Shown here: piece after piece, positions 9,186-64,000 of the stretch
How positions within the stretch are numbered: the stretch's first letter is position 1
Layout: each line of letters opens with the position of its first letter
Position numbers and translations under genes: made by a program
The notes under the pieces: generated by a model
Database searches by the model: none
Told to the model about the DNA's origin: nothing
Seen by the model: only the letters and a program-made list of their open reading frames with translations
DNA from: Limisphaerales bacterium
Lineage (GTDB): Bacteria; Verrucomicrobiota; Verrucomicrobiia; Limisphaerales; AAA164-E04
Direction: 5' to 3'
Assembly: GCA_965204945.1 (NCBI GenBank)
Contig: OZ242022.1
Span: 3,797,591-3,861,590, forward strand
DNA length: 64,000 bases

Positions 9186-10535
9186 ATGCGCGCAACTTTG
9201 CGAAAACAAAGAAAATCAAAAGAGATTCCTCCGCAAAAATCCCCTCCCTCTTTCTGGCGACGGGCCGCGGGCAAGGCCTTATTGCTCTTAGCCGGAACTG
9301 CCTTCGCCTGTGCGGCATTAGAAAGCTATCTCCGTCTCCAATGGCCCTTCCTAACCAACAAAGAATCGACGCACTTCCATCCCAAAGCCGGTAGCATCAG
9401 AAAGCCCAACGCAGAGGTGCGCTCGACAAATAACCACGGCGAATTCTTTACCATCCAACGCGTCAACCGATTAGGATTCTTAGACCGCGAGCCCATAAGC
9501 CCGGAGCAAAGAGGAACAGGTTGTCATATTACCATTATCGGTGACTCTTTTGTGGAAGCCAGACAAGTGGCCATCGCCGATAAATTCCATGTTCAATTAG
9601 AACGGCTCGCCGCCAAAGAATTGCCCCATCTGAACATGACCGCATCAGCCTTCGGACGCGGCGGCACCGGACAAATTAATCAATTGCCTTATTATGACGA
9701 GTTTGCCCGGCATCTGTGCCCCTGCGTTTTAGTGCTGGTGTTTGTGATCAACGACTTCGGCAACAACCATCCGATTCTCTCCTCATTGCAAAAGTCCGAA
9801 GCGTGGGATCCAGAGCATCCCCCATTCGCTACTGCGGAAAAAAATGCGGACGGCGCCTTTTGTTCGCATTCGCCGGATCGGAATTTCCGCAGGCACATGT
9901 TGCCTCGCCCGCCTATGTCTTGGACTTCAAGATTGAGAAACTATTGGACCCAAAAATTCTACCTTGCCAAGTGGCTGTACTCCAAGCGCTTGTTATGGAA
10001 ATACGCTCGCGCAGAGGCCGCTAAAGAAGGCCGCAAGGAGTCTGAAGATCTCCAAATGACTGCGCGGGTAAAACTTTTGAGCCAGCGCCCCCGTTATGCT
10101 TCTCTGACAAAAGAATGGCCGCCCATATCGAGGATAAATAGTGTGTTTGAAAGAAAAAATTTGCCGCCGATATTTGAGGAAGCCTTAGAATTTACGGCCT
10201 ACGCCTTAGATCAATTCAAAACTCGCGCGGATCAAGATGGTGTTTCGCTGATTATATTGTCCACGCATACTATGGGCGCCCGAGGAAACCTGCCTTTTGA
10301 TCGGATGAACGCATTGGCCAAAGAGCGCGGCATCTCCATCATCGATCAAGCGGATTACATTCGCCGCCAAGGCGGCCGAATTCCGGATGTGCATTGGAAA
10401 CATGACCGACATTGGAACGCAACCGGCCATCAATGGGCGGCGAAAGCCTTGTTAGAATACTTGAAGGAAAACCCGCATATTTGCCGCGCTGAATCCAACA
10501 ACTACAATTCCGCAGACACGACGCAACAAGACTAA
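9186..10535 (+). CDS. membrane-anchored SGNH/GDSL-like hydrolase (paralog 1)
   Basis: The N-terminus is basic and followed by a TM helix. A GDS block (IIGDSFVEAR) and a C-terminal HDRHWN (DxxH-like) are present. It is collinear with the next gene. Confidence 0.6.
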   Translation: MRATLRKQRKSKEIPPQKSPPSFWRRAAGKALLLLAGTAFACAALESYLRLQWPFLTNKESTHFHPKAGSIRKPNAEVRSTNNHGEFFTIQRVNRLGFLDREPISPEQRGTGCHITIIGDSFVEARQVAIADKFHVQLERLAAKELPHLNMTASAFGRGGTGQINQLPYYDEFARHLCPCVLVLVFVINDFGNNHPILSSLQKSEAWDPEHPPFATAEKNADGAFCSHSPDRNFRRHMLPRPPMSWTSRLRNYWTQKFYLAKWLYSKRLLWKYARAEAAKEGRKESEDLQMTARVKLLSQRPRYASLTKEWPPISRINSVFERKNLPPIFEEALEFTAYALDQFKTRADQDGVSLIILSTHTMGARGNLPFDRMNALAKERGISIIDQADYIRRQGGRIPDVHWKHDRHWNATGHQWAAKALLEYLKENPHICRAESNNYNSADTTQQD

Positions 10536-10564
10536 CCTCCAATCCCCCAATCAATATCTCTAAT

Positions 10565-11887
10565 ATGCGCCAAGCCGACAAGAGTAAAGAAATACGCGGA
10601 ATAAAAAAGCCATCCCTCGCGCAACGTCTTCGCAAGATTGCGGGAAGAACTTTGTTGTTTCTAGCTGGAATAGCCTTCGCCTGCGCAGCATTAGAAACCT
10701 ATCTCCGCCTCAAATGGCCATTCCTAAACGGCGAAATCCTCTCGGACTTCCATCCCCAAGCGGGCATGATCCGCAAACCCAACGCAGAAGTGCGCTGGAC
10801 AAAAGAACACAGCGAGTTCTGGACGGTTCAGCGCGCCAACAGCTTAGGCTTCTTAGACCGGGAGCCTCCAAGCCCGGAACAAAGAGGGACAGGTTGCCAT
10901 ATTGCCTTTATCGGCGATTCTTTTGTAGAGGCGAGAGAAGTCTCCCTCTCCGAAAAATTCCACATCCGTTTGGAAGAGATTGCATCCAAAAGCTTGCCAC
11001 ATCTCAAAATCACCACTTCGGCCTTCGGGATTGGCAACACCGGGCAGATTAATCAATTGCCCTATTACAATGAGTTTGCCCGACCTCTGCGCCCCTGCAT
11101 TTTGATTCTTGTATTCGTCCAAAACGACTTTGCCAACAACCATCCAGTCTTGCAGGCATTAGACAGCGGAGGCTGGGATCCCAATCACAATCCGTTTACT
11201 ACCGCGGCAAGAGGCAAAGACGGAAGACTGCAATTGGAGGATCCCGATTCAAAGTTTATGGAGCGCAGATTGCCGCGGCTGCCAATGTCTTGGGCTTCGC
11301 GGGTAAGAATCTACTCGTCTAAAAGATCTTATCTGGCCAAGTGGCTGCATTCCAAGTTGTTATTATGGGAATATACTCATCCGGGGGCGAACGAGGATCC
11401 GGAGTTGAATATGTGGGTAAAGCATTTGAGTAAGCTCCCCGGCTATGATTCGCTGGCCAAGGAATGGCCGCCTTTAACCGAAAAAGGAAAACATGATCAT
11501 CCGTACTCCATATATAGTGTTTTTGGGAAGAAAGATTTGCCGCCGGTTTTTGAGGAAGCCTTGGAATATACGGCCTTCGCCTTAGATCAATTCAAGGCAC
11601 GCGCCGAGCGAGATGACATTCCGCTACTCATCTTGTCCACGCATACTATGGGCACTCGCGGAAACTGGAATTTTGACCGCATGAACGCTTTGGCCAAAGA
11701 GCAAGGCATTCCCGTTATTGACCAGACAGCCTACATCCACCGCCAAGGCGGGCAGATTGAGAATGCGCATTGGAGGCATGACCGACATTGGACTCCGCTT
11801 GGCCATCAATGGGCAGCGGAGGCCTTACTGGAATACTTGAAGGCAAACCAGCATATTTGCCGCGATCAGCACGGCGAACTGGAGTAG
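10565..11887 (+). CDS. membrane-anchored SGNH/GDSL-like hydrolase (paralog 2)
   Basis: It shares blocks with 9186-10535: RGTGCHI, GDSFVEAR, GQINQLPYY, ILSTHTMG, FDRMNALAKE, HDRHW, GHQWAA. Confidence 0.6.
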   Translation: MRQADKSKEIRGIKKPSLAQRLRKIAGRTLLFLAGIAFACAALETYLRLKWPFLNGEILSDFHPQAGMIRKPNAEVRWTKEHSEFWTVQRANSLGFLDREPPSPEQRGTGCHIAFIGDSFVEAREVSLSEKFHIRLEEIASKSLPHLKITTSAFGIGNTGQINQLPYYNEFARPLRPCILILVFVQNDFANNHPVLQALDSGGWDPNHNPFTTAARGKDGRLQLEDPDSKFMERRLPRLPMSWASRVRIYSSKRSYLAKWLHSKLLLWEYTHPGANEDPELNMWVKHLSKLPGYDSLAKEWPPLTEKGKHDHPYSIYSVFGKKDLPPVFEEALEYTAFALDQFKARAERDDIPLLILSTHTMGTRGNWNFDRMNALAKEQGIPVIDQTAYIHRQGGQIENAHWRHDRHWTPLGHQWAAEALLEYLKANQHICRDQHGELE

Positions 11888-13623: not shown

Positions 13624-15682
13624 TCCTCCACGGCCCCATTGCGTCCAGTTCGTAAAGACCTCTCTCCTAACAAAATCTTAGAAACAACTTGCCGTCGACG
13701 TCTTCCCATACTGGAAAGAAAAAATAAAAAATTGCCCCATTGTTGCTTTGCGCCTTTCCAATCTTTAAAAGTGTTTAACGGGGCGATTCACCTGAGTCTC
13801 TCATCCTCAACCGCGATGGAGGGAATTCCTCTCCTCCAACAGCCGATCGAGGAGATCAACAAAGCACAAGGTAAAAACGGAAAACAGCAACGACTTAAGT
13901 TCTTTATGACGACGAGAGGCCGGTGGCTTTTGGGATTATGTTTGCCATATTGCCTCCATCCCTCATTCTCCTTGCCGTACACATCTCGAAATTACGACCT
14001 CCACTCTCAACAACTCTTTAGCCCATATTGATGGATTTGTGGGATTTGGGTGGGAGGCTTTCTGTCGATGGTCTTCGGAGAAGGCTTAAGGGATTACGCT
14101 TCTAATGAGGTAGAATTATGATTGCGCGGCGGCGGCGCGCTGTGGCCGATAATCTAACCCAAACAACAAGAACTCAAACACGCCTCTGACAGACCACCCA
14201 AGCCCAACAGCCAAGTCGTTCATCTAATCTGTCACAAGAACACCAAGCGCAAGAAACGGGAACTTCTGAAGCCGAAGAGCTGTCACTAATCCCCAAAGCC
14301 GTCTTATATCAAGCACACGACAGGATTGCCATAGCGGAACTTGCCCTATGAGTTCGGTGACTGAAACTCGCCTCAAATGGAACTCACAAGCAAGCGTTCT
14401 TGGATAGCGCGACTTTGTTCGATGAGTTAGGCAACTGGAACGCCGTCTAGTATCGCTTTTGTCCTTGCACGAAGAGCGCAAGATGTAGAAACGACTCTGG
14501 CAGTGATCTCCACGCAATCGACGATGCACAACTCCATGCCCTGTTTCTTCGATTGTTGTATAACTATTATGTATGAGTGAGTGAAATGTCTTTGCGCAAG
14601 AGGCATTTCGCGCGCTGTTTGGTTCGGCTCAGGGAAGTTCGCTATCAATGAGAATAGGTTGATCTGGCGCAATGCGCGCTCTACTATGGTTATTCCAGCG
14701 CAAACATCCGTTCTTCATACATTTTCATGCTACTGGCAGGGGAAAAACGATCATGTTCTGTTGAGATTTGGAGGCATTGAGAATGGGGATGGTTGTTCTT
14801 TCCCGAAGCGCAGCGAGTGGATTCATTACAATGCCGGGAAGTGTCAGTTGCGAATGGCGCGGAATTCCGCTGTCTATTATAGAAGATAAGGGGAACGATT
14901 CATTAGGATGAGGAAAAGTGCAAGTTATCAGAGGAGGCAGAGCGGATTGTTCAGGGAGCGCAAGGAAGTTTTTTATGATCCTTGTCAAAGAGGGGGTCGG
15001 TTGGGGAAGTGATTAGATAGGGTTTGGGCGAAGAAGTTGGGATGGCATTAGGAAATTTAGGGGAAAGCGTTTATGCGAGGGTTTCTACTCAAGTCATTTC
15101 GTCGCATCGTGATGTCTTTATAGGAGAAGTTTCACTGGATAATATGGCAAGTTCTGCACTCTACTAGAGGTTTTTAGTGTTTGTTTCTCTCGTGGTTTCT
15201 TGGATTATGCTTCGATAATTCGCTAACTCGGTTTAGTCAGTAGGGATTTCGTCTCATGCCGATTTTTCCAGAGGTAGTAATCAGCAGGGCTGTCAACTGG
15301 ATTTTGACTTGGCTTCGGGATTCCTAAGGCGGAGTTTTTTTGTTGAGGAATGGTGGGGGCGAGAGGAAAAATAGAACGGAATATGGAGAAGGGAGATAAG
15401 TGGGATGCGGAGAAGACGGTGGGGCTTCCTCCGTTTTTCACTTCTTTATCTCTTACTGTATATGTTCAATAATATAAAATCTAAACTCACAATTTCTAAT
15501 TTAGCGGATTGTGTAAAAGGGGCTAACCCATGGTCATAATATCGGAAAAACTATTTCTTCAGGTAGAGTAGGGACGCTCGCTGCTTTTGAACAGAAAAAG
15601 GACAGAGAAGAATGCCCGAGCCGCTGCGTAATCTGCCGAAGAAAACATTGTCAAAGGCCGGCAAAAATGTTACCCACGAGAC

Positions 15683-17168: not shown

Positions 17169-17715
17169 ATTGCCGTTCCCAGTTTCTCTTCCTTTAGGCC
17201 GTCGCTCACCGCCCCACAAATCCGCTCTCTTCCTCGCTCTTTTACAACTCCCTCAACGAGCATTCGCCAGACAAGGCATCCAAGGAAAACCGCTTCTAAA
17301 AAAACCACCGCAACTCGCCAAAACCATCACTAAGCCGTTGCAAAACGATCCAAAAACCAAAAAAAACAAATCGCCATCCGCCAACGAAAAACGAAGAAAA
17401 AGTCGAAAAGAGGCAAAAAAAGTTAGGAAAATCGAAAAAAGGGTTGAGCTCACGGTTGTTTTTTGATTTTCTTGCGCTTGTCAACACACGGCGAGTTGAT
17501 TCCTCTATCGGGTCTCCCCGCTGAAGTGTCACAGTTTGATATGCACAACGCGTCGGGAGATTCGATCGTCTCTTCCTGTTGGCTTCGGCAAACAGGCAGG
17601 AACTCGCGCTTTTTAATCCGCTGTGTGTTGACAACCGGCCTGGCGCGGGAAGAGGGTTTCCCAAAGGCGCCGGCCAACTCGGAGAATACAGAACAGATCA
17701 GATACGCAACTCGAC

Positions 17716-18630
17716 ATGAAGAAAGTAACATTTTACTCGAAACCGCTTGACGATTCCAACGGATTGGTCAAGGATTGCTCCAACGAATTCATGGAGCAGA
17801 ACGAATCAGCGATGCAGAAGCTTGCGATGCCTAGCCACTCCACTGCCGGGCTTTTGGCGCGCATGGTCAAAGGCGTTGTTTCCTTCCTCCAAAACCTCCT
17901 TTCCCCGCTGACGCGCAAGGAGGGCGTCAGCTGCGGCCAAGAAGTCTTCCGCTTGCGCGAACTTTCCCAAACCGCCGCCATCGGCGCGATTTACGGCCTG
18001 CTCTTCGCCGGCCTCCTGCTCGCGCCGTTCCAAATCAAATCTTCCGTACGTCCATGCTCTAAAATCTACGCTTGGAACATACACTTGTTCCCAGTTACCC
18101 CGGAGAACACAATTCCGCTTGACCTTTGCTTGGAAGATTTTGGCGAATTCATTCCTGCCTATCATCAGATTGGCACGGATTTGAGCCGAGAAATCCGAGA
18201 AATCAAAATTGACTGGGCAGAATGCCGAGAAGACGCAACAGTTGACGCTGCGATATGTTTGGGTGCATGCGGGTTAACTAGTATCCCGGTTGGTAGCAAA
18301 AGGGTTAGAGATTTGATTAGGGACATAATCAAAAATAATGCAGTTCCCGAAGCGCATCTTCCTCCATTAAAACCGGGAAACCCGGGAAGAAACTACATAA
18401 CCGGATGCGCTTTGATCTGCACAGCAAATTGGGCACTTGCCCGGCGCGCATGTTGGACAGCGCATAATCGAGCGTACGACGAAGCTCATCGAAGAGCCAA
18501 CGACAAGGTGAAAGATTTAGTGGATAGTTGGCATCAAAATCAAACCAGTCAAAGCGTGGAATGCGGATCCGATTTGGGTTGCGGCCCCGAAGGAGCATGG
18601 GAGGGAACAATTAGACCCAGAGGCCATTAA
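17716..18630 (+). CDS. hypothetical Cys-rich protein with one central TM segment
   Basis: This is the longest ORF in the region, with a hydrophobic segment AAIGAIYGLLFAGLLLAPF. No family was recognised. The next ORF follows 17 nt later on the same strand. Confidence 0.45.
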   Translation: MKKVTFYSKPLDDSNGLVKDCSNEFMEQNESAMQKLAMPSHSTAGLLARMVKGVVSFLQNLLSPLTRKEGVSCGQEVFRLRELSQTAAIGAIYGLLFAGLLLAPFQIKSSVRPCSKIYAWNIHLFPVTPENTIPLDLCLEDFGEFIPAYHQIGTDLSREIREIKIDWAECREDATVDAAICLGACGLTSIPVGSKRVRDLIRDIIKNNAVPEAHLPPLKPGNPGRNYITGCALICTANWALARRACWTAHNRAYDEAHRRANDKVKDLVDSWHQNQTSQSVECGSDLGCGPEGAWEGTIRPRGH

Positions 18631-18647
18631 GGAAAGGAGAGAAAACC

Positions 18648-19493
18648 ATGAACAAAGACAACACATTTCAATATGTTCGCCAAATTATGCTCGCTACGGT
18701 ATGTAGCGTCGTCATTTGCGCAACAATAGCGGCAATCGTCGCTACTCAGACACGAAAGGATTACGCTACTCTGGAACACGTCGAGGAAAGCCTTGCCCTT
18801 GCCCGTTCTTCATTAGCCAACGCAATTCAGCAAGAGGCAAAAACTACGGGCGAGAAAATCGCTACATTAAGTGAGAAAATCGTTGCGTTGCAAAAAGCCA
18901 TTGAATCGCTGGAAATCCCGCAAAGATCAACAACAGCAGAATCAACTCAAATGGACGAAACTTCCCATCCAGATTCTGTGCCTTGTTGCGGCGGAGATGA
19001 GCAGATCAATTCTTCCGAATCCGCATCAGCACAAAACGCAGATGAAGGATTAATTAAGAAAGAAATGGCTGAACTCATGACGGAAGCCATGGGGGAAATG
19101 GAAAATGACGCCGCAGAAGCCGACTTATTCCGATCCATGCTCGACGAAGAGGAACTCATTATCCTTGCTGAGAAAACCACAAGAATCCAGGCTGATATTG
19201 AGGAAACTTTTGCCCCGATATTGGAACTTATTCCCGGGCCCTATAGTGAAGAAGATAGGAAGTACATGGGGTTTATTAATGCTATCTTTGCAAATATAGC
19301 CGAATCGGAGGCAATGATGGAAATGCAAATTGAGCAAGATGAGCAAGAAATGGCTGTGCCCCTCGAAGAGAGAATGAAACTAATTCCACCAGAAAACCCT
19401 ACGGAAGAAGAAATGGAGGAATTTGAAAGGATTCAGCAGGAAACAGGGCGATTCATGCGCATGCTGGAAGAAGCGGCAAGCCAACAAGAATAG
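18648..19493 (+). CDS. hypothetical N-terminally anchored, highly acidic coiled-coil protein
   Basis: GGAGAG lies upstream of the ATG. There is an N-terminal TM (IMLATVCSVVICATIAAIVA) and a Glu/Met-rich C-terminal half. A hairpin terminator follows. Confidence 0.5.
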   Translation: MNKDNTFQYVRQIMLATVCSVVICATIAAIVATQTRKDYATLEHVEESLALARSSLANAIQQEAKTTGEKIATLSEKIVALQKAIESLEIPQRSTTAESTQMDETSHPDSVPCCGGDEQINSSESASAQNADEGLIKKEMAELMTEAMGEMENDAAEADLFRSMLDEEELIILAEKTTRIQADIEETFAPILELIPGPYSEEDRKYMGFINAIFANIAESEAMMEMQIEQDEQEMAVPLEERMKLIPPENPTEEEMEEFERIQQETGRFMRMLEEAASQQE

Positions 19494-21861: not shown

Positions 21862-22050
21862 CACAATTCTACCAACCCGCATTCCCACCGCGCGAAATTT
21901 GAATTCATCACTTTTTAGAAAACAAAAAACCTTCACTTTCATAAAAAAGATGAAAGCGAAATTAAAAACCCAATCGTCGTTTGCAGGCAACAACCCCTGA
22001 TTGCGAACGAACCCCGAATCAAAAATCACAAACTAAACTTCCGATGACGG

Positions 22051-22806
22051 CTACAAAGTGGCGGCTTGGCGGCGTTTCTTTTGCATTCGCCGGCGATAAA
22101 AGAGGACAAAGCCCAAGGCAAACAAGCCAAACACAAGCGCATATTCCTCCGGTTCTGGAATCAAGGCTGCGGGAGTGCTGGAAACCATTACTCGAAAACC
22201 GCTAGAACTCGGCGTGCCCAAAGTGCCGGCCGCCGCAAAATAAGGGCCGAAGATGTAGTTGTAATAATACTCGCCGGCGGTGTTGACAGCAAAGTTGGTG
22301 ATGGATTGAGACAAAGTGCCTTGCCCCCTCCACGAGACGACGTCGTTGGTGGAATAGCTGAGCGAACTTGCCGCGACTCGAATGCCCACGATGTCCACAC
22401 TTCCGTCTTTTTCCATATGAATGTGACTGATGGTTCTGGTGACGGAAGGCGTGGTAATCTGCGGCAAGCTGGCAGAGTTGGCAGTTAAAGAATAATCGAC
22501 CGCACTGCGATTCCCTGCAAAGAATCTAGTGCCGCCGGAGGTGTAGGGTAATATGCTTCCTACTGTCTCGAAACCTGCGACCGATTCCGTTGTGGAGATG
22601 GTGACGGCGCCGGATCGAGAAGCAGTGGAGCTGCCGGAGAACGTCCAGATGGTTGTGTTGGTGTCGCTTTGAAGGGGATTGATGGTGAGAATCAACTGCG
22701 CTTGGCTCTGCTCCAAAGAAACCAAGAAAGCGCCGACACTACCAACGCCACGAAAAGAGACCTATGCCCGCTTGCCGCTTGCATATTGTAAGGATAGCTT
22801 TTTCAT
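22051..22806 (-). CDS. PEP-CTERM surface protein, paralog 3 (5' end disrupted: leader and mature domain not in one clean frame)
   Basis: The C-terminal sorting signal is IPEPEEYALVFGLFALGFVLFYRRRMQKKRRQAATL. The mature ORF runs 22051-22725. ATG 22806 (MKKLSL, like the paralogs) is in frame but hits TAG after 14 codons. A hydrophobic leader (MQAASGHRSLFVALVVSALS, ATG 22784) lies in another frame. Confidence 0.6.
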
Positions 22807-22873: not shown

Positions 22874-22902
22874 TTTATAATCTCTTTTCCGCCTCATGTC
22901 AA
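22874..22902 (-). promoter_or_regulatory. sigma70-like promoter of PEP-CTERM paralog 3
   Basis: The minus strand reads TTGACA, a 17 nt spacer, then TATAAA. The other two paralogs have the same geometry. Confidence 0.45.
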
Positions 22903-23154
22903 CCCTCAAATCCACAAAAAAGTGAAGAAAAATTCGTTGAAAACGGCAAAATCCACAAGAAAAGAGCGCGAAAGGAAGTTCGAGATGGGGAATTTTCCTT
23001 TGCCTTGTCGTCAAAATAGTCGGCATCCAATTTTTCTCTCCGCAAGCCCGCGGAATCATCGGGGCGTGGTTTCGCCAAAAAAAGAAATTTCGCCGCATCT
23101 TCTTCAATGCGCTTGTTTAGCGGTTGCCGCTCTGCTTGAGCCGGGAACGTTCCG

Positions 23155-25746: not shown

Positions 25747-26275
25747 TCCTTTGCGTTCACTTTAAGCCTTTCCCAAGACAAACTGCAACGAGAATTTTGA
25801 AGAACATGGAAGTCTCGACTTTCCTGAACGCTAATCTTTGCCTTTCGCAAAAAGAAAACATTTTTGCCGTTCAGATTGGCGACTTTGTAGCAGAACTGTG
25901 GAAAACAAATCCGACTTTGGCCATTTTCTCAACCGCAATCGCAATCAGCGCAACGGCGGCCTCCCATAAAAACCAGCAGCGGCTAACCGCGCGTTCCCAT
26001 AATCCGAATTCACCGCTCTTTCCGAAACAAGAAAAACTCCGCTTGGGAAATCCCAAAAGCGGTTGCTCTTGAAAAAACGAGGCCAACCTCAATCCAAAGG
26101 CCAATAGCCCAAACCACAGACCCCCAACACTAGCCAGAGGACTTTGACCCCCAAAATCACTAGCCACAAATCCTCAATCCCCTATCGCCCAGCCTTCTTC
26201 TGCCTCTTCTTGAAAAAGCCCTAACCCCCCCAAAAGCCTCCGACCACTTGGTTCGCCAGCGCAGCAAGTAGCCGG

Positions 26276-26410
26276 CTACAAAGTGGCGGCGGCTTGTCGT
26301 TTCCTTTGCCAGTGGCGGCGATGAAAGAGAACAAAACCCAGAGCAAACAAGCCAAACACAACTGCGCATTCTTCCGGCTCAGAGATGATGGTGCCGCCAT
26401 GAAAGCGAAG
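26276..26410 (-). pseudogene. orphan 3' fragment of a PEP-CTERM paralog (sorting-signal tail only)
   Basis: The minus strand translates as ...RFHGGTIISEPEECAVVFGLFALGFVLFHRRHWQRKRQAAATL*, which is collinear with the tails of the three full genes. No matching upstream body or start was found. Confidence 0.55.
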
Positions 26411-26619
26411 CGAACGGCAAACTCAATACAACCAATTCCCATCAGCGCAGCAACTAGCCAGCTATATGTCACCAGCCGTGGATCCCCGCAAATACCCGGC
26501 TGTTGGAGGAGGCAGGAGAATCTACAAATCACAAGATACCGACCACGAAGCTATGGTGGTTTGTCGTTTTTGTCGCTTGCCGCACAAACAGCCAAAAAAT
26601 CCGCATCGCCAAACCAAGG

Positions 26620-27370
26620 CTACAAAGTGGCGGCTTGCCGTTTCTTTTGGAAGTGGCGGCGGAAGAGGACAAAACCCAAAGCAAACAAGCCAAACACAAG
26701 CGCGTATTCCTCCGGCTCAGGGATGATCCCGCTGTGAATGCGCAAAGTCACTCCGTCTCTGGCAAAGTTCGGCTCCAACGTCGCCCAGGCCCCCACATTC
26801 TTGATGAAGAAATCCCCAATCGGCTTCTCCAACAAACCTGAACCCACCCAAGAAGACGCCTGCCCATTAAGAAGCCCATAGTTGAAAGTGCTGCTCACCC
26901 GAATGCCAATATTATCGGCGGCAGTCACATCGTTCATGAACATCCGATTAATAGTTCGGTTGACGGGCGTCGTGCCGATGGTGATGGTGGGCGTGTTGGT
27001 GGCGGTGACGGCAAAGACGATGTTGCTCTTGCCGCCGCCCGGAATTCGGGCATTCACTGAAGCGATGTCTAGGCGGTTGGTGCTGGAAGAGAGGGGAGAG
27101 AGGGTGATGGTTTGGTTGGAAGGCTTGTTGGCGTTGTAAATGTCGCTGGCCGTCTGCCAACCATCGGCGCTAGAAGCGTTGCCGCTGGTGCGTAGCGTGC
27201 CGGGGGTTGCGACGGTGGAGGAGCCGGAGAAGATCCAGATGCTGTTAGTGGGGGTATCCTGGCTGGGATAGACATCAAGGATCAACTGCGCCTGGGCGTT
27301 GTCCCCCCCCCCCCCCCCCCCCCCCGCAAATGCAGGCGACGGCGGCCAATAAAGATAGTTTTCGTTTCAT
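26620..27370 (-). CDS. PEP-CTERM surface protein, paralog 1, with poly-G tract in the signal-peptide region (frameshifted as sequenced)
   Basis: ATG 27370 encodes MKRKLSLLAAVACIC, followed by G(23). The mature frame continues DNAQAQLILDVYPSQD... to IPEPEEYALVFGLFALGFVLFRRHFQKKRQAATL*. The track ORF 26620-27285 is the mature part only. The tract must be 3n+1 long to join the frames, and 23 is 3n+2. Confidence 0.75.
27303..27325 (-). repeat. homopolymeric G(23) tract (C23 on plus strand) inside a coding region
   Basis: Counted directly: C at every position from 27303 to 27325. Confidence 0.95.
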
Positions 27371-27401
27371 AGGAATCTAGTTTGTTGTCAAAAATCTCTT
27401 T

Positions 27402-27430
27402 GTTTCTAATCCTTCCTCCGCAACGAGTCA
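27402..27430 (-). promoter_or_regulatory. sigma70-like promoter of PEP-CTERM paralog 1
   Basis: The minus strand reads TTGACT, a 17 nt spacer, then TAGAAA, ~31 nt upstream of ATG 27370, preceded by T-rich tracts. Confidence 0.5.
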
Positions 27431-27540
27431 AGCCCTAAATCCACAAAAAAATGAAAAAAGTTAAGAAAAGTTCTTTGTAAAACGGGAAAAAGCGCAACAA
27501 AAGGGAATTCGGGCTGGGAAAATTCATAGTCTTTCCCCTT

Positions 27541-27756
27541 GCCGTTGCGGAAAAAGAAAGTTTTTGGAGCGGTTGCCGCTTGTTGTGGTCGTGATTTCTT
27601 TCTTCCGCAGCCAAGTAGTGAGTGGGATTCGATTGAAGGATTGGCGAGCAGAAGAGCGAGAACTGGTTGTTTTGGCGCGCAGTTTGTCGGCTTGTGGATT
27701 CTTTGGGTTTGGAGAGTTTTGACAAATCCAAAAGCCATCTGAGACAGATTAGTATT
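27541..27756. repeat. conserved ~220-bp upstream element, copy A (partner 58511-58738)
   Basis: Manual alignment to 58511-58738 shows about six substitutions, one 1-nt indel and one 12-nt tandem duplication. It contains a long imperfect hairpin (27547-27608), with arms GCGGAAAAAGAAAG/CTTTCTTTCTTCCGC enclosing AGCGG-TTG-CCGCT. Confidence 0.85.
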
Positions 27757-27940
27757 GGCTTAGTCATGGATCCTCAGCGGTTTTGCCGATGGAAGAGGAT
27801 TTTGCGGTATTCTATTAAAAGCGACTCTGTAAGGGTGATCTCGTTTTTAGAATGGCAAAGTCTCGTTGACTTGCGCGGGGGCAGGGACTATGCTCGGCTT
27901 TGTGTTGTCTGAAGGTCGCCAGTCAGCGAAGGAAAAGTTT

Positions 27941-44945: not shown

Positions 44946-46175
44946 TTATCGGGCTCCTTTTTCGAAATGTACTACAAGGCGTTTGTACCCGTTATGGATT
45001 CGCACCCATTTCCAATAGCTCCGGGTTCTAGCTCCAGTAATCCCTCCGTTTCCGTCATGGAATTGTACCCACATATTTGTATAAGTGGGTTCGGTTTTAA
45101 ATTTCCGGGAGATGCTGTTGCTAATGTCGGGGCCTTGTGTAATCACTTGGTTTTTTTTTTTTGCAAACCATATAGTTTGTTTTTGAATTTGTGTAGGATT
45201 TGAAGTCAAAGAATTCCTGCCGTGGCCTACAATTCCTAATCTTCCGCTAGACAAGAAATTACGGAACTTCCAGTAAAGTTTGCCTTCGTATGTGTTGGCT
45301 TCAGGGTCTTCGGCATCTGCGTGGCCGAGTGCTGACCATCCATCAGAATCCCATATGCTTTTCATCTCATAGTCGTCGACTTTGCGCTCGAGTGTTCGGA
45401 TGTAAGTTTCAGGTCCAAAGAAGAGGTGATTGCCATAAATTCCTCGCCATATCCTAAGCTCTCTCGCCTTATTTCTTGCGTAAGCGTCTTCTCTGCCGAA
45501 AACAGCTGCATCTTGTTTGTAGTACACTGTGCCATCTGGGTTGCGTCCGAACAATTCCAGCATTGAGTTTTTTACGGTGTATCTTGCAGGTGAGAGAAAA
45601 CGCTCAGCTTCCGCAGTCCGCATAGCTGTTCCGTCGATCCGAGTTCCCACTGGGGAGGTATCCCATTGATGTCCTTGACTAGCGGTTTTTCTTCCAGTCG
45701 TCGTCCAGTTTCTTGACCAACTTTGACTAGCAGGGTACCATGTTTTTCGCTTACGGATTTCCGTGGTGGAATTTCCTGTCCACCAAGCCGCGTTGACTTC
45801 GGCTGTGCCTTCTGCGTCGTCGTCAAGTGTTATGCCTCCATGGTGTTCCAGCAATTTCCTTTTAGTCTCGCTCAATGTTTCATTAATGCCCCAACGGACA
45901 GCGGTCAGAACAACGAAGTAGGTAGCGGAAAGTATCAATTGGAGAGGAGTCGCCTTGGCTTCGTTTTGCGTCACTTTGGTTGGAATCAGCAAAATGCCGA
46001 TGACCAACAGGAAAGTGAGTCCAATCAAGCCAATGCGCTTGCGTGTCCAGCGCGATTCCTTCGCCGTTGCCGGCGATTCCGTTATTTCCGATGCAATTTG
46101 CATGGCTTCTTTGGAGACATTTTTCCCCGCGCTGTTGGCGTGGTCAAGATTAATTTCGTTATTTAATGTGCGCAT
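44946..46175 (-). CDS. hypothetical membrane-anchored, Trp-rich protein
   Basis: A single long ORF with TM IGLIGLTFLLVIGILLI and a second hydrophobic segment. It contains an in-frame A(12) run (45151-45162). No family was recognised. Confidence 0.55.
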   Translation of the reverse strand: MRTLNNEINLDHANSAGKNVSKEAMQIASEITESPATAKESRWTRKRIGLIGLTFLLVIGILLIPTKVTQNEAKATPLQLILSATYFVVLTAVRWGINETLSETKRKLLEHHGGITLDDDAEGTAEVNAAWWTGNSTTEIRKRKTWYPASQSWSRNWTTTGRKTASQGHQWDTSPVGTRIDGTAMRTAEAERFLSPARYTVKNSMLELFGRNPDGTVYYKQDAAVFGREDAYARNKARELRIWRGIYGNHLFFGPETYIRTLERKVDDYEMKSIWDSDGWSALGHADAEDPEANTYEGKLYWKFRNFLSSGRLGIVGHGRNSLTSNPTQIQKQTIWFAKKKNQVITQGPDISNSISRKFKTEPTYTNMWVQFHDGNGGITGARTRSYWKWVRIHNGYKRLVVHFEKGAR

Positions 46176-46614
46176 AAAACGGTCTTTCTTTGCTTAGTTA
46201 CAGTAATGTTTATTCGATAATTTCAAGCCGATGAACAAATAGATAGAGCAAAAAGCGCAAGTTCCCGCCCGTTCGCCAAAGCCAACGGGAAAGAGAATAT
46301 TCGACTCTCCCAGAGCAAAAATCATATTTAAACTGTGATATTCAGCAGGGAGACTCGACAAACGAATCGCCCCATCTATCTATTCAAAACCGAGAAAATC
46401 AAAAATCCAGCTGGAGCGCAAGCTTTTTTTTCAAAAAATCTCAACTTTTTTTGAATTTTTTTCGCAGGCTGGCGAATGCAGGCAAAATTCTGGGTTTTGT
46501 TTGGGTTTTGGCGCGGTTTGTCGGCTGGCGGATTCTGTGGTTTTGGGGATTTTGGGGAGGTTCAAAAAGCGGTCTGAGGCAGCTTAGTAACGGCTTCGTC
46601 TCGGTTTTGTTGAG

Positions 46615-47721
46615 TTATAGTTGGCGGCTTTTGAGAGCGCTGTAGTTGTTGCCGGGGGTTTGTTCGATCAAGCGTTTCATTTCTAGTTGGAGGAGCGCTG
46701 CGCTGATAACGGGCACGGAAAAACCAGATTGGCGAACGAGTTCGTCCACGTGCAAGTCTTCTTCGCAAAGCAGTTCGTAAAGTTTCCGCTCAGAATCGGA
46801 CAATGAACTAAGAGAAGGCGGTTCGGAGGCCTCGCTTTTGGCGGAAGGAAACAAGTATTCAAATTCGCTAAGGATGTCTTCGGCGTTTTCGCAAAGTTTG
46901 GCGCCGTTCTTAATCAGATTGTGGCAGCCTTTGCTGCGCGGAGAGTAAACCGGACCCGGCACGGCGAAGACTAGCTTTCCGCAATCCAGAGCCTGATTGG
47001 CGGTAATGAGCGCGCCGCTTTTTGCGCCCGCCTCCACAACGACGACGCCCAGTGAAATGCCAGCGACGATTCGATTGCGGATGGGAAAGTTTTGGCCCGA
47101 CGGCGGGCGGTCAAAGGGAAACTCGGTAAGGATGGCGCCGCGTTCGATGATTTGTTCAAAGAGTTTTCGATTTTCGACAGGATAAACCCGATTAATGCCG
47201 TTTCCCAAGATGCAAAGAGTTCTGCCTTTGGCACTGAGGGCGCCTTGATGGGCGCCGGAGTCAATTCCTCTGGCGCCGCCGCTGATGACGGTCACGCCGG
47301 CCATGCCTAACTGATAGGCGAGTTTTCTCGCTGTTTCTCGTCCGTAGTTGGAGGTGATGCGCGAGCCGACGATGGAAATGCTGGTGCGGTCGGATTCTTG
47401 AATTTCGCCCTTCACATACAAAACAATTGGCGGGTCGTAGATTTGTCGCAATGGTTCTGGATAAGATTCGTCTAGTTGGGTAAGAACATAGCAACCGAAG
47501 GATTCGCAGTTGGAGACTTCTTTTTTGAGGTCAATTTGGCTTTCCCAGTTGGCAATCGAAGAGGCAATCTCTGGGCCGATTCCATGAATTTTGGCAAGGC
47601 GGCTTTGGCTGGCAGTTAGAATCTTCTCCGGCGCGTCAAACTCCTCAAGAAGGCGGCGCACGGTAACCGGACCAACCTTTTCTAGCATGTTGAGCGCCAT
47701 CATTGCTTCTTGAGAAGTCAT
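46615..47721 (-). CDS. dprA: DNA-processing protein DprA/Smf
   Basis: The Rossmann-like core has VISGGARGIDSGAHQGAL and VVVEAGAKSGALITA. There is a C-terminal winged-helix-like tail. Confidence 0.9.
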   Translation of the reverse strand: MTSQEAMMALNMLEKVGPVTVRRLLEEFDAPEKILTASQSRLAKIHGIGPEIASSIANWESQIDLKKEVSNCESFGCYVLTQLDESYPEPLRQIYDPPIVLYVKGEIQESDRTSISIVGSRITSNYGRETARKLAYQLGMAGVTVISGGARGIDSGAHQGALSAKGRTLCILGNGINRVYPVENRKLFEQIIERGAILTEFPFDRPPSGQNFPIRNRIVAGISLGVVVVEAGAKSGALITANQALDCGKLVFAVPGPVYSPRSKGCHNLIKNGAKLCENAEDILSEFEYLFPSAKSEASEPPSLSSLSDSERKLYELLCEEDLHVDELVRQSGFSVPVISAALLQLEMKRLIEQTPGNNYSALKSRQL

Positions 47722-57044: not shown

Positions 57045-57388
57045 AATTTAAAACCAAAAAAGGATTACAAATCGCAACCGCCTTTGTCAACCCAACTCCA
57101 CAGTGGCAAAAAGGAAATCGCTTTGGATTTCCCGCCAACCGGAAGACAAATGGAATCCTCTCAATCCATTTCCCCGCCGCAGAACTCCCGCCAACCCCCA
57201 AAGCCTGCTCAAAGCACGGGTTTCCGCAATTCCAATTCCCCGCTCTTTCCGAAACAAAAAACTCCGATCCCAAAAAGATGGAAGCGAAGTTGCTTGAAAA
57301 AACGAGGCCAATTTTTAGCGGAGGCCGAAGCGCAAAGCATATAAGCCGCTAGCATGCATTGCCGGCCTCTGTTTGCCAGCAACGAAGG

Positions 57389-58166
57389 CTACAAAGTGGC
57401 GGCTTGTTGGCGTTGTTTCTTTTGCATCTTTTGCCGGTGGCGATGAAAGAAAACAAAACCTAGCGCAAAGAGGCCGAAGACAAGCGCGTATTCTTCAGGT
57501 TCGGGGATGACTTGGCTGTTGATGGTGACCTGTATGCCACTAAGCGACGTAAAAAGAGATCCGCTAGTGTAAGTTCCCGCAAAGAAGTCCCCAATGGGTT
57601 TGCCGATTATGCCGGCGCCCGTCCAAGCCGAAGATTCGTTCTGGGAATAAGACAAACTGCTCCCAGAAACACGAATCCCTAAGTCATCTGCACTGTTGTT
57701 ATCATCATCCATAAAAAGATGGGAAATGGTTCGGTTGCCGCTGCCGATGGTAATGGTCGGCGTATTGGTGGCGCTGGCGGCAAAGGTGATGTTGGTTCGG
57801 CCGCCGCCCGGAATTCTGGATCTCACCGAGGCGATGTCGTCGGTATTGGAGCTGGAGAACAGGGGAGACAGAGAGACGTTGAGGTTGCTGGGCGAGTTCG
57901 CGATGAACATCTGTCCGCTATTCGCGGAAGCGGAGTTTATCCAATCCCAAGAGTCTTGGAGAAGGAAAGTGCCGCCGCCGCTTGCGGTTCGGATGGCACT
58001 ATTACCCCGAGCGGTAGAAGAGCCGCTAAAAATCCAGAGGGTTTCGCTGGTGGGGTTATCTTGGCTGGGATAGACGTCAATCACCAACTGCGCTTGGGCG
58101 TTGTCCCCCCCCCCCCCCCCCGCAGATGCAGAAGATGGCGGCCAATAAAGATAGTTTTCGTTTCAT
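57389..58166 (-). CDS. PEP-CTERM surface protein, paralog 2, with poly-G tract in the signal-peptide region (frameshifted as sequenced)
   Basis: ATG 58166 encodes MKRKLSLLAAIFCIC, followed by G(17). The mature frame continues DNAQAQLVIDVYPSQDN... to IPEPEEYALVFGLFALGFVFFHRHRQKMQKKQRQQAATL*. The tract must be 3n+1 long to join the frames, and 17 is 3n+2. Confidence 0.75.
58105..58121 (-). repeat. homopolymeric G(17) tract (C17 on plus strand) inside a coding region
   Basis: Counted directly: C at every position from 58105 to 58121. Confidence 0.95.
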
Positions 58167-58201
58167 AAGAATCTATTTATTAACTGTTAAAAATTTCTTT
58201 G

Positions 58202-58230
58202 TTTTTAATCCCTCCTCCGCAACGTGTCAA
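58202..58230 (-). promoter_or_regulatory. sigma70-like promoter of PEP-CTERM paralog 2
   Basis: The minus strand reads TTGACA, a 17 nt spacer, then TAAAAA, with the same spacing to the ATG as in paralog 1. Confidence 0.5.
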
Positions 58231-58510
58231 CCCCAAATCCACAAAAAAGAGAAAAAAGTTAAGAAAAGTTCTTTGGAAAACGAGAAAAAGCGCAAAAAGC
58301 GCAAAAATTCTGCTTTTTTCCGGTTGCGGGAAAAAGTTTTGAGGCGGTTGGCCATCCAAGCGGCAAGGTGGCTTTCGTGGATGAGATGGGCAAGCCAAAA
58401 TGATATGGGTGAGCCAAAGCTGACTTTGGCGTGAATTGGAGGAGCGGGCAAGACAAGGAAACCTCGAAAAGCGCGCAAATTCCATCTTGCTGTTAGCCAA
58501 GCGCCTCCTT

Positions 58511-58738
58511 GCTGTTGCGGAAAAAAGAAAGTTTTTGGAGCGGTTGACGCTTGTTGTGGCCGTGATTTCTTTCTTCCGCAGCCAAGTAGTGAGCGGGATT
58601 CGATTGAAGTATCGATTGAAGGATTGGCGAGCAGAAGAGCGAGAACTGGTTGTTTTGGCGCGCAGTTTGTCGGCTTGTGGATTCTTTGGGTTTGGAGAGT
58701 TTTGACAAATCCAAAAGCCATCTGAGGCGGATTAGTAT
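58511..58738. repeat. conserved ~220-bp upstream element, copy B (partner 27541-27756)
   Basis: See copy A. A partial extra copy of the element's first ~35 nt lies at about 58323-58355. Confidence 0.85.
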
Positions 58739-58786
58739 CAGATAAGTAACGGTTCTGCCGATGGGAAAGGAAGGTTGCGGCGGCGT

Positions 58787-59245
58787 TTATTTCGGGTCTA
58801 AGTCTGACTTTTTCCTTTCTTCCAGCATGACGCAGGCCTCCAGCGCAAGGAGGTAGGAGGCGACGCCGAATCCGCAGATTTGGCCTTGACAGACGGGCGC
58901 GATCAACGAGCGATGCCGAAATTCTTCGCGATTGTGGATGTTCGAAAGGTGAATTTCGATGCTGGGAATACCTGTTCCGCAAATCGCGTCGCGCAACGCA
59001 ATGCTGGTGTGCGTGTAAGCCGCGGCGTTGATGACTAGATAGTCATGGTCGTTGGAAATCTCGTGAATCCACTCGACAAGTTGTCCTTCGGAGTTGGATT
59101 GGCGAAATCCGACTTCGATGTTGCGACTGGCGGCCCGTTGGCGCAACAACGAGGCAATGTCGCTGAGGTTGGTTCTGCCGTAAACTTCCGGCTGTCGGAC
59201 ACCCAGTAGATTCAGATTGGGGCCGTTGAGGTAACAAACTTTCAT
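58787..59245 (-). CDS. aroQ: type II 3-dehydroquinate dehydratase
   Basis: LNGPNLNLLGVRQPEVYG, INAAAYTHTSIALRDA and IEIHLSNIHNREEFRH blocks are present. The start was trimmed to ATG 59245 (152 aa). The track ORF extension overlaps the upstream gene. Confidence 0.9.
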   Translation of the reverse strand: MKVCYLNGPNLNLLGVRQPEVYGRTNLSDIASLLRQRAASRNIEVGFRQSNSEGQLVEWIHEISNDHDYLVINAAAYTHTSIALRDAICGTGIPSIEIHLSNIHNREEFRHRSLIAPVCQGQICGFGVASYLLALEACVMLEERKKSDLDPK

Positions 59246-62182: not shown

Positions 62183-62921
62183 AAATCAAGGATAAGGGAA
62201 AAAGAAAGGCTTGTCCAAAGGAAAGTTGACACTTCCACGCACGCAACATTCCGCCAAGCCGGGTTCAACACCGGCTTCCACCAGCATCGTCACATAAATT
62301 AATCTCTACCCGCCGCTCACCAGTCGTTGGCAAGTAGCCAGCGGTGCCGATAATTGCAGTGAAAACGCACCAACAAACCCAAAAGCCACCTTCTCCCATC
62401 CCTCCTTCTAATCCCCAACTGCCGCCCAAATCAAAGAATTCCCTGCAAGCCCACTTACTCCCCCAATTCACCAACCACAAATAACCAACACCAAACCCCT
62501 ACTCAATCCACAAAATACTCCTTCATATAAAAGACGCCCTTCGCTACTCGAACAACCGTAAGTCACTAACCGCCATAACCTTCCTTTCTCTTGCATGAAC
62601 AATCACCAGCAATAAAAATATGTTCATCGCATCATTTGTTCTACAACATGGCAATCCCAACAAAATGCCATCGACCATCCAACCTCTCTCCAAAACAACA
62701 CCCCCAACACAAAGAAAAATCCACAACCAGCAATCAACTCCAACCGTTGACCATAAAGCCTAAAAAACACTTCCCTCCCACTAGCCACCCCAACAACGCC
62801 TACTCCCCATTTACCAAACACTAATCACCAAAACTTTCTTTTTGACAACGGCAAGGTGGAATTTCCCACCTCTTTGGCGAATTCAGCGACCAACTCGGCA
62901 CCAATAACCAATGAAACTCCT

Positions 62922-63708
62922 TCAAAGCGTAACCATCCATCTTCCCACACTTTGCAGTTTTACCATCCCTTTCCATTCTTCCCGTTCCACAAAACTTTCT
63001 TTCCCGCAACAGCAAAACAGACTAGTGAGTGTTGGCGCTAATGGAGCATGGCAAAGATGAGGGGGGAATGCGATGAGCCCCGTGAATATCCCCTCCAGTT
63101 TGTCCAAGCGGGAGAAGACTCGACGATAGCCTTTTAACCCCCAAAACAATCTCTCTGCTTCGTTGCGCTTTTTATACAATTCCTTGTCGTATTGCCAAGG
63201 ATGGCGACAGCTTTTCAAAAGAGGAACTACCGGATCCAATCCCATTGCTTAGGCTTGCTGGCGGTTCTCCTCGCCTTCATAATACGCCCTATCCATCAGC
63301 AAACAGAACTTTGGCCAGACGATTTCCTATCTTGCGAAGGAGTTTTCTCCCCGCAGGCGCATCATGCCCGTTTCCCGGAGACAAAGAAGAACTTCCCCCC
63401 GTGCGCTTCTTTGCGGCAAGCATGGGAATTTTAGTAGTCCAGCCTTCGCTGGACTTTCTGATGGACGGCGCGCCTTTTTTAGCGCGCTTGTTCCAGCGGG
63501 ATGAACCTTTATGCTCGCGCTGTCCGGCATCCGTTTTTCTGGCGGAGCGTCCGTCTGCGTCTTTGCCTTTAACTTTTCAAGCACTCTATTCCAAACGCCG
63601 CTTTTCGTCCAGCGGTTCACATGCGACAGTAAATGGTATTCCACTTTTTCTCTTTGTTTGGGCAAATGCGGCGCGATTTGTTAATATTGTTCTTCCGTGA
63701 ACTGCATA
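62922..63708 (-). mobile_element. decayed IS5-family (DUF4096 + DDE) transposase remnant
   Basis: Minus-strand fragments lie in different frames. MQFTEEQY*QIAPHLPKQREKV...HVNRWTKSGVWNRVLEKL is the N-terminal helix-turn-helix region, with an in-frame stop and an internal deletion. DSASIKVHPAG is DDE region 1. YDKELYKKRNEAERLFWGLKGYRRVFSRLDKL is the C-terminal DDE region. No inverted repeats were identified. Confidence 0.6.
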
Positions 63709-63754
63709 AATTCTAACAAAAAAAAGCCGCCGCGCCTAACACCATTAATGAGAT

Positions 63755-63988
63755 CTAATACACTCCGATATTGTGCTTGGCCGCAAATTCTTCGGGAGTG
63801 GGCGTCGGTTCGTATTTGGGAGGCTCAACGATACCTCGGCGCACCCAATCCTCGTATTTTTCATGCAAGCGTTCAATGTGCGCAATTCGCTCCGGTGACA
63901 ACGAAGTGGGCATTTCCTTGCCGACGGTTTTTTGGACTTGATCGCCGATTTTAGAACCAGTTCCTGCTGTGGAGGAATATGTATCCAT
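63755..63988 (-). CDS. hypothetical small protein (77 aa)
   Basis: The ORF is complete in the window and has non-repetitive composition. No family was recognised. Confidence 0.35.
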   Translation of the reverse strand: MDTYSSTAGTGSKIGDQVQKTVGKEMPTSLSPERIAHIERLHEKYEDWVRRGIVEPPKYEPTPTPEEFAAKHNIGVY

Positions 63989-64000
63989 GACGAGTAATGT

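Follow-up and report, generated by a model that had tools for sequence, protein, structure and literature searches.

The 64,000-nucleotide (nt) stretch of Limisphaerales DNA analyzed here (termed the window) contains two genes that encode PEP-CTERM-like proteins and that each carry a poly-G tract within their signal-peptide codons. Gene 1 lies next to fur (locus 1) and gene 2 next to aroQ (locus 2). Both are on the minus strand and each is preceded by one copy, designated c1 or c2, of a non-coding element whose sense strand is likewise minus; a third member of the family is referred to as paralog 3. A first-pass annotation, made from the letters of the window, had described this upstream region as far better conserved than the genes it precedes. 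Here the element is compared with loci from other strains, genomes and contigs, which are designated by L-numbers. The Pfam families found near loci of this gene family (PSCyt1/2, PSD1, DUF1501, and N_methyl together with SBP_bac_10) suggest a bacterium of the Planctomycetes-Verrucomicrobia-Chlamydiae (PVC) group.

The family to which these genes belong is large: the locus-2 protein has at least 309 PEP-CTERM-like homologs, and more than 10 paralogs occur in each of three complete genomes of 4.2-4.5 Mb. Its members share a C-terminus of the form IPEPxEYALVFGLFALGFV..RR/KK--that is, IPEPxEY followed by a hydrophobic helix and a basic cluster, with the motif IPEPxEY-ALVFGLFALGFV-RR/KK--and thus appear to be exosortase-sorted PEP-CTERM substrates, even though the TIGR02595 (PEP-CTERM) model scores 14.3 bits, below its 16-bit cut-off, and Pfam gives no match. 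The last 110 nt of the coding region have copies at 26274-26389 (84% identity), 22049-22161 (83%) and 57381-57510 (72%). The first of these copies, which shares 84% identity with 26618-26727, is an isolated C-terminal anchor within a long, non-coding, C/A-rich stretch (25760-26620) and probably represents the remains of a gene. In most family copies the G-tract falls among the signal-peptide codons; the number of G's varies with the strain (23 versus 9 nt at one locus, and 17 versus 8 or 6 nt at the other). As assembled, both poly-G genes of the window are out of frame, reading MKRKLSLLAAVACICGGGGGGGGQRPGAVDP and then a stop. A paralog in a 4.23 Mb genome (P0084; L022 2960-3060) carries a 25-nt poly-C on the sense strand right after the ATG and has a different promoter region; homopolymer switching therefore extends beyond the poly-G subfamily.

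The similarity between the two loci is concentrated upstream of the genes. When positions 26500-27900 are searched against the window using BLASTN, 27537-27755 aligns with 58507-58738 with 6 mismatches and 2 gap openings. These gaps correspond to a 1-nt indel within a run of A's and to a 12-nt gap, which a MAFFT alignment reveals to be a tandem duplication in c2 (TCGATTGAAGTA followed by TCGATTGAAGGA, at 58600-58623). By comparison, the 5' regions of the genes (26950-27500 versus 57725-58298) are 73% identical with 16 gap openings. In 50-nt windows along the two loci, identity is 0.90-1.00 within the element, 0.78-0.92 over the promoter, 5' untranslated region and signal peptide, and 0.28-0.78 over the mature coding part; it is near zero over an insertion of about 190 base pairs (bp) that locus 2 carries between element and promoter and that holds a second copy of a family motif (described below). 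Taken block by block, identity between the paralogs amounts to about 97% for the element core and to about 86% for the promoter/signal-peptide block. Hence two statements of the first-pass annotation--that the upstream tracts differ by about six substitutions, a 1-nt indel and a 12-nt duplication, and that the coding regions are clearly more diverged--agree with the alignments; a recent segmental duplication with near-identical coding sequence, which it had named as the finding that would overturn its reading, is not what is seen.

A 21-nt pattern taken from the element matches the window three times as against 0.02 expected matches, and a pattern with 19 specified bases finds only 6 matches among genome contigs, all from unrelated taxa and close to the number that we estimate would occur by chance, and none in scans of metagenome contigs and viral contigs. 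Beyond the core, homology continues at lower identity into a distal extension, within which site partitions follow locus orthology (c1 with L007 versus c2 with L016; both L-loci are described below). Positions 46505-46604 hold a third copy, which is partial; it is closely preceded by the dprA stop codon (46615) and followed by an unrelated gene (44946-46175).

How the element behaves between strains can be seen from the fur locus of a related strain, L007, which was compared with the window segment by segment. (L007 and the metagenome locus L011, which contains a c2-type unit behind a ThiS-like gene, were obtained through a protein search with an open reading frame (ORF) that overlaps the element.) Relative to the window, the fur coding sequence of L007 is 99.5% identical, the part of the gcvT coding sequence compared is 98.8% identical and the distal flank is 97.3% identical; identity then falls to 95.0%, plus 58 gap columns, within the element core, to 82% in the spacer, to 88% in the signal peptide and to 52% in the mature coding region, where a locus-2-like allele stands in place of the window's. 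Two paralogs within a single genome thus have more similar elements (about 97%) than do orthologs in strains with 99% identity (95.0%), and the orthologous element in L007 carries paralog-like variants. Because the element is less alike between strains than are its flanks, it lies in a fast-changing, recombining part of the locus.

Recombination is likewise indicated by how variants are distributed among copies. Each of the four possible combinations of the 12-nt duplication with a 45-nt insertion is represented (absence and presence being denoted by 0 and 1): c1 (0,0), L007 (1,1), c2 (1,0) and L016 (0,1), the last being an aroQ-locus copy from the same metagenome sample as L011 (SAMN12291663). 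Among five copies, drawn from three loci, the informative sites over about 500 bp fall into at least five partitions that conflict with one another by the four-gamete test. L016 is itself a mosaic of c2, c1 and L007: its distal part is c2-like, it has no duplication (as in c1), it has the insertion (as in L007) and its spacer is of the c1 type; moreover, it has lost both the promoter and the ATG. Four independent aroQ-bearing metagenome contigs (L017-L020) end inside the element, at positions corresponding to 58741, 58684, 58655 and 58706 of the window, which indicates that the element is a multi-copy repeat in those populations, since assemblers stop at repeats.

Two further observations concern the same loci. 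The promoterless copy in L016 (4460-5140) and a copy in L011 that is truncated after about 72 codons (10268-11160) have their first roughly 240 coding nt in common; these copies could be silent cassettes or, alternatively, the ends of rearrangements. In addition, about 458 bp of a C/A-rich region of the window (62402-62859) are missing from the orthologous L016 and L017, which constitutes an indel polymorphism within an upstream region of the family.

A second genome, 4.23 Mb in size, provides a further comparison through two of its loci, L013 and L015. These are 90-98% identical to each other over about 100 nt homologous to the element core, and their coding regions are mosaic, with 30-90% identity; between the two genomes, however, identity of the element drops to about 73%. 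Close similarity inside each genome together with divergence between genomes points to concerted evolution rather than to strong purifying selection at the sequence level. Thus, of the two forces that the first-pass annotation had offered for the element ('purifying selection or gene conversion'), conversion or recombination is favored by the incompatible partitions, by the L007 ortholog and by the second genome, and exceptional purifying selection is not.

Within the upstream block, several components recur (Table 1). The promoter-like sites of genes 1 and 2 and of paralog 3 have, as had been noted from the window, the same geometry, TTGACW-17-TAnAAA, which is found as well in paralogs from three other genomes or strains; a generic promoter scanner missed these sites, as A rather than T stands at the final position of the second hexamer. 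In gene orientation, an A/T-rich tract precedes the promoter. Further upstream is a family motif, AAAACTTTCTTTTTCCGCAACGGCAA, which (using a regular expression with shuffled controls) matches 14 times in 178 kb as against 0.03 times in shuffles; all matches read in the sense direction, and the distance from the -35 hexamer to the closest copy upstream is 86-129 nt. Given these statistics and this position, a cis-regulatory role for parts of the element is plausible. The core proper, about 116 nt (27640-27755), is almost invariant across the five close copies. At the far end is a distal block with 11-nt periodicity, which is the part most widely common to loci and genomes and which, in gene orientation, consists of ACTAAGCCnnT-type 11-mers followed by CTCAGATGGCTTTT; within the window it also occurs in front of unrelated genes, as it does in L011 and L015. 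The sense strand of the upstream block is rich in C (29-35%) and poor in G (11-17%), compared with 26% and 25%, respectively, for the window as a whole. The family motif and the distal block are candidate regulator-binding or insulator sites that most likely act at the DNA level.

Table 1. Window coordinates of the features discussed in the text
Feature	Positions	Strand	Remarks
Core tract, copy 1 (c1)	27537-27755	-	Upstream of fur-adjacent PEP-CTERM-like gene; BLASTN and MAFFT alignments
Core tract, copy 2 (c2)	58507-58738	-	Upstream of aroQ-adjacent gene; carries the 12-nt tandem duplication at 58600-58623
Distal extension, copy 1	27756-27815	-	Lower-identity homology; locus-specific flank begins here
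Distal extension, copy 2	58739-58786	-	11-nt deletion relative to copy 1; abuts aroQ stop codon (58787-58789)
Third, partial copy	46505-46604	-	Distal block plus start of core; about 77% identity
Promoter-like TTGACT-17-TAGAAA, gene 1	27402-27430	-	Reverse complement read
Promoter-like TTGACA-17-TAAAAA, gene 2	58202-58230	-	Reverse complement read
Promoter-like TTGACA-17-TATAAA, paralog 3	22874-22902	-	Reverse complement read
Family upstream motif AAAACTTTCTTTTTCCGCAACGGCAA	27539-27564	-	107 nt upstream of -35
Family motif, copy within element 2	58509-58535	-	Motif search
Family motif, second copy in locus 2	58318-58340	-	87 nt upstream of -35; in the roughly 190-bp spacer that locus 1 is without
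Family motif copy	62830-62854	+	Orphan C/A-rich upstream region 62200-63030, ending at IS5-like remnant
Family motif, second orphan-region copy	62991-63015	+	Orphan C/A-rich upstream region 62200-63030
Distal conserved block ACTAAGCCAAT/ACTAATCTGTC/TCAGATGGCTT	27730-27764	-	11-nt periodicity
ACTAAGCC repeats			Candidate protein-binding sequence
Long imperfect palindrome (hairpin)	27546-27609		Arms are two inverted family-motif copies; short form
13-mer AGCGGTTGCCGCT	27568-27580 and 23119-23131		Latter upstream of paralog 3; read directly
Poly-G tract, 23 nt, signal-peptide codons of gene 1	27303-27325	-	Gene out of frame in assembly
Poly-G tract, 17 nt, gene 2	58105-58121	-	Gene out of frame in assembly

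A weak copy of the family motif occurs at 25838-25862. Two other identities for these sequences were considered and set aside. Reading the family motif and the -35 region as a sigma-54 or extracytoplasmic-function (ECF) promoter was rejected by eye, inasmuch as the GG/GC spacing or the -12 GC is wrong; it is also countered by a spacing between the motif halves that varies from 13 to 19 nt. The idea of a DNA uptake sequence, raised by the resemblance of GCCGTCTCAG to the uptake sequence of Neisseria, was dropped, as the copies are far too sparse.

Taken together, these patterns make it probable, though well short of certain, that the element is a concertedly evolving 5' non-coding homology block of a recombining, phase-variable family of PEP-CTERM-like genes, and that it carries cis-acting sites as well. 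We infer that c1 and c2 would owe their near-identity to recent homologous recombination or gene conversion between paralogs and not to unusually strong purifying selection. The upstream block, the promoter/signal-peptide block and the C-terminal anchor would together supply the homology by which variable coding segments are swapped between loci and between strains. The same block would bear cis sequences of the family: the motif roughly 90-130 nt upstream of a sigma-70-like promoter; the 11-nt-periodic distal block, which is common to the upstream regions of other genes; and the C-rich, G-poor sense strand--all of which would most likely serve as regulatory or insulating sites in the DNA. The long hairpin would then be a lineage-specific palindrome, built from two inverted copies of the motif, that may act as a recombination hotspot.

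Several observations weigh against this explanation. Conversion is deduced from few copies, most of which are on metagenome contigs of uncertain strain linkage. In two genomes it is one and the same homologous segment that is most homogenized; neutral conversion would not lead one to expect this, and it could mean that identity within a genome is itself selected, for example so as to match a co-evolving trans-acting factor. The 116 nt at 27640-27755 are almost invariant in five copies. And a compensatory change of GCGG..CCGC to GCGA..TCGC in L007, together with seven G.U pairs that form on the plus strand only, hints at a constraint on RNA or on structure. The recurrence of that segment in two genomes also hints at two variants of the explanation: that the block is a dedicated recombination module, or that its within-genome identity is selected to match a co-evolving trans-acting RNA or protein. 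We regard these, as a pair, as rather unlikely.

That an upstream region is better conserved than its gene need not mean that it encodes a functional RNA, because concerted evolution within multigene families gives the same pattern. Nevertheless the possibility that the element encodes, on the plus strand, a structured RNA (a small RNA or an antisense regulator of the surface gene) kept by purifying selection was examined closely, as this was among the proposals of the first-pass annotation. That annotation's long imperfect hairpin (which it placed at 27547-27608) indeed folds, at 27546-27609, with a predicted energy of -26.2 kcal/mol (z = -2.8) on the plus strand and of -18.9 kcal/mol (z = -3.3) on the sense strand, and its apical stem-loop does recur upstream of paralog 3, as AGCGGTTGCCGCT at 23119-23131. 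(A diverged copy of the next motif follows the 13-mer there, so that residual homology is indicated rather than chance; it is probably a remnant of the proximal part of the element.) L007 and L016 contain a long form of the palindrome, about 115 nt, in which a 45-nt apical segment absent from the c1 hairpin is present; this folds at -61.0 kcal/mol on the plus strand (z = -7.2, 44 pairs) versus -35.4 on the sense strand in L007, and at -48 versus -32 kcal/mol in L016. Also in favor of an RNA are the seven plus-strand G.U pairs, the compensatory change--G-C to A-T, within the basal stem of L007--and five pairs with double changes in a consensus (alifold) fold of the plus-strand core. The plus strand, however, is G+T-rich in every one of the upstream regions, which confounds the G.U bias; L016 carries uncompensated changes; and the consensus folds of the conserved core are weak (-4.5 and -8.8 kcal/mol), with several pairs broken. 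Moreover, the hairpin is not present in the homologous elements of L013 and L015 in the second genome, its apical 45 nt come and go among strains, and the element as a whole is less conserved between strains than are its flanks.

Nor do the signals expected of a transcript accompany the hairpin. Rfam 15 gives no match at the gathering threshold (positions 27300-27900 yield only noise matches with E > 7) and, for the element, none even at E <= 10. On the plus strand, a generic scanner calls no promoter-like site within or upstream of the element, the one site reported being that of fur (27866-27894), and nothing terminator-like where the element ends on its 3' side. Inside the element it makes two plus-strand terminator-like calls and no others (27569-27592 and 27575-27589); both are part of the hairpin, and copy 2 has no equivalent, since the scanner finds none there. 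The minus strand of the element offers nothing more than a weak TTGTCA-16-AAGAAT, and diverged copies do not preserve it. A structured or divergently transcribed small RNA is thus unsupported and, as an account of the element, unlikely.

Four other explanations were considered. Read on the sense strand, the distal part might be an insulator or terminator (Rho-dependent, or a weak intrinsic hairpin with a T-run) that blocks read-through from upstream. The neighboring gene is co-oriented in about six of nine contexts; the block begins 0-40 nt past the stop codons of aroQ, dprA and UDG, and about 270 nt past that of the ThiS-like gene; the sense-strand composition (C 31%, G 16%) fits a rut region; and ATCTG-TCT-CAGAT followed by GGCTTTTGGATTTG occurs on the sense strand at 27725-27750. 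Yet the scanner finds no minus-strand terminator at the distal block, predicted folds are inconsistent among six copies (that at 46505 being without a stable hairpin), and in locus 1 and L013 there is nothing to terminate, as the upstream gene is divergent. This proposal also leaves the near-identity unexplained, and it is quite unlikely as an account of the element. Alternatively, the element might be, or contain, a mobile repeat resembling a miniature inverted-repeat transposable element (MITE) or an enterobacterial repetitive intergenic consensus (ERIC) sequence, which inserted upstream of one family member and then spread. ERIC, repetitive extragenic palindromic (REP) and Correia-type intergenic repeats are known classes of palindromic repeats, and like them the element is multi-copy, breaks assemblies and contains an imperfect intergenic palindrome, here of about 65-115 nt (the longest form, in L007 and L016, being about 115 nt). 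The occurrence of its distal block upstream of unrelated genes and the targeting of these upstream regions by IS5-like elements point the same way. Unlike those repeats, however, it is bound to one gene family, with copies fixed in position and orientation relative to the gene; its palindrome is internal; homology fades gradually at both ends instead of stopping sharply; in another genome, a diverged homolog is found at the corresponding place; and neither terminal inverted repeats nor target-site duplications were seen by eye, which was not a systematic search. Such an origin is therefore distinctly improbable.

An invertible promoter switch (inverton) is suggested by an inverted repeat in locus 1, TTGTCAAAAATCTC (27385-27398) and GAGAGTTTTGACAA (27712-27725), whose arms agree at 13 of 14 positions, are 313 nt apart and enclose the promoter. 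In this respect, and in having a phase-variable promoter region before a PEP-CTERM gene, locus 1 resembles the invertible promoters of Akkermansia muciniphila, a member of a possibly related phylum, among which inverton group 138 is enriched near PEP-CTERM genes (PMC11892184). In contrast to those invertons, the repeat is not conserved in other copies: when the sequences are read by eye, locus 2 and L011 retain some 10 of the 14 left-arm positions, and L013 and L015 show no recognizable left arm. Moreover, all five assembled copies have the same orientation, the sole inverted repeat conserved in both loci (AATCCACAA/TTGTGGATT) leaves the promoter outside, and the genes already have a poly-G switch; an inverton is accordingly very improbable. 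Least credible of all is that the element encodes a small sense-strand protein, namely the 110-residue ORF at 27435-27767 that a gene caller annotated in L007 and L011. Frames are open in c1, L007, L011 and L013, three indels that distinguish close copies leave the frame intact (12 nt, 45 nt, and +2 together with +1), and several differences in the first 10 codons look like synonymous third-position changes. Nevertheless, a search of 5.8 billion proteins found two matches only, both being near-identical copies of the element; the ATG is missing from c2, L016, L013 and the 46505 copy; the frame is lost between lineages after about 20 codons, and a 1-nt indel alters the C-terminus even among close copies; and, over 40 nt, variable sites number 6, 5 and 2 by codon position, without clear periodicity. 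A second 110-residue ORF is open in another frame of the same strand, and hence open frames here reflect a composition poor in stop codons. The stops of aroQ (58787-58789) and dprA (46615-46617) are in frame with an open frame running through the element copies behind them; this too is judged to be a coincidence of stop-poor composition.

The block, understood as a concertedly evolving homology block, belongs to a known kind of system: the flanking homology blocks of variable, phase-switching surface-gene families. Its closest counterparts are the 5' homology blocks of gene-converting surface families, such as vsp/vlp of Borrelia hermsii, the flanks of pilE/pilS and opa in Neisseria and the tprK donors of Treponema. 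Like vsp/vlp, pilE/pilS and tprK, this family has many paralogs with mosaic coding regions lying between a conserved 5' non-coding/signal-peptide block and a conserved 3' end; its paralogs are more alike within a genome than between genomes; and cassettes are replaced from strain to strain, with breakpoints in the conserved block. Unlike systems with silent cassettes, every full copy here has its own promoter (L016 and L011 contain promoterless or truncated copies), and the copies examined provide no evidence of a single expression site fed by silent cassettes. The proteins also differ from those of vsp/vlp, pilE/pilS and tprK in being PEP-CTERM-like exosortase substrates, and the exchange among them is deduced from sequence comparison. 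A second set of counterparts consists of contingency loci with homopolymeric tracts, such as the poly-G genes of Campylobacter, Helicobacter and Neisseria. As in those, the tract here lies in signal-peptide codons and varies in length between strains, and both window genes are out of frame; it differs in being unusually long (17-25 nt), and the main finding here concerns the non-coding block upstream of it. Long mononucleotide tracts have been noted in Akkermansia (PMC3048395). In a limited literature search, no paper was found that links PEP-CTERM families to homopolymeric switching plus gene conversion.

Other features of the window and of related loci deserve mention. A conserved, structured-looking leader occurs in the window at 46176-46420 (minus strand) and 17470-17715 (plus strand), in L011 at 13684-13900 (minus) and 18975-19240 (plus), and in L015 at 18425-18665 (plus). 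It is found upstream of unrelated hypothetical genes (44946-46175, 17716-18630 and others), and its L015 copy follows a sigma-70-like promoter. Its stems include GTCTCCC...GGGAGA and CCTGTTGGC..GCAAACAGG; its alifold energy is -28 kcal/mol, with compensatory changes in 12 of 35 pairs; and region 46150-46650 has no Rfam match at E <= 5. This leader is a candidate for a new cis-regulatory RNA. Insertion sequences, for their part, seem to strike upstream regions of the PEP-CTERM-like family repeatedly: remnants of an IS5-like transposase (63040-63990, minus strand) abut the orphan C/A-rich upstream region at 62200-63030, with its two motif copies, and in L014 (9800-9960) an IS5-family transposase stands in place of the promoter and first codons of paralog P0007. 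Finally, the promoter-like site of fur (TTGACT-17-TATGCT, at 27866-27894 on the plus strand) lies outside the element, and the fur start codon is likely the ATG at 27941 rather than that at 27890.

In combination, the poly-G tracts and the upstream block imply that surface proteins subject to switching and recombination form a large repertoire in an uncultured bacterium, which in this respect can be likened to pathogens with contingency and antigenic-variation systems. Were the block in fact a dedicated recombination module, then a long, unstable palindrome beside the almost invariant core (about 116 nt) would give rise to breaks and steer their repair so that one paralog serves as the homologous template for another, and a programmed shuffling of PEP-CTERM cassettes would be layered on poly-G switching.

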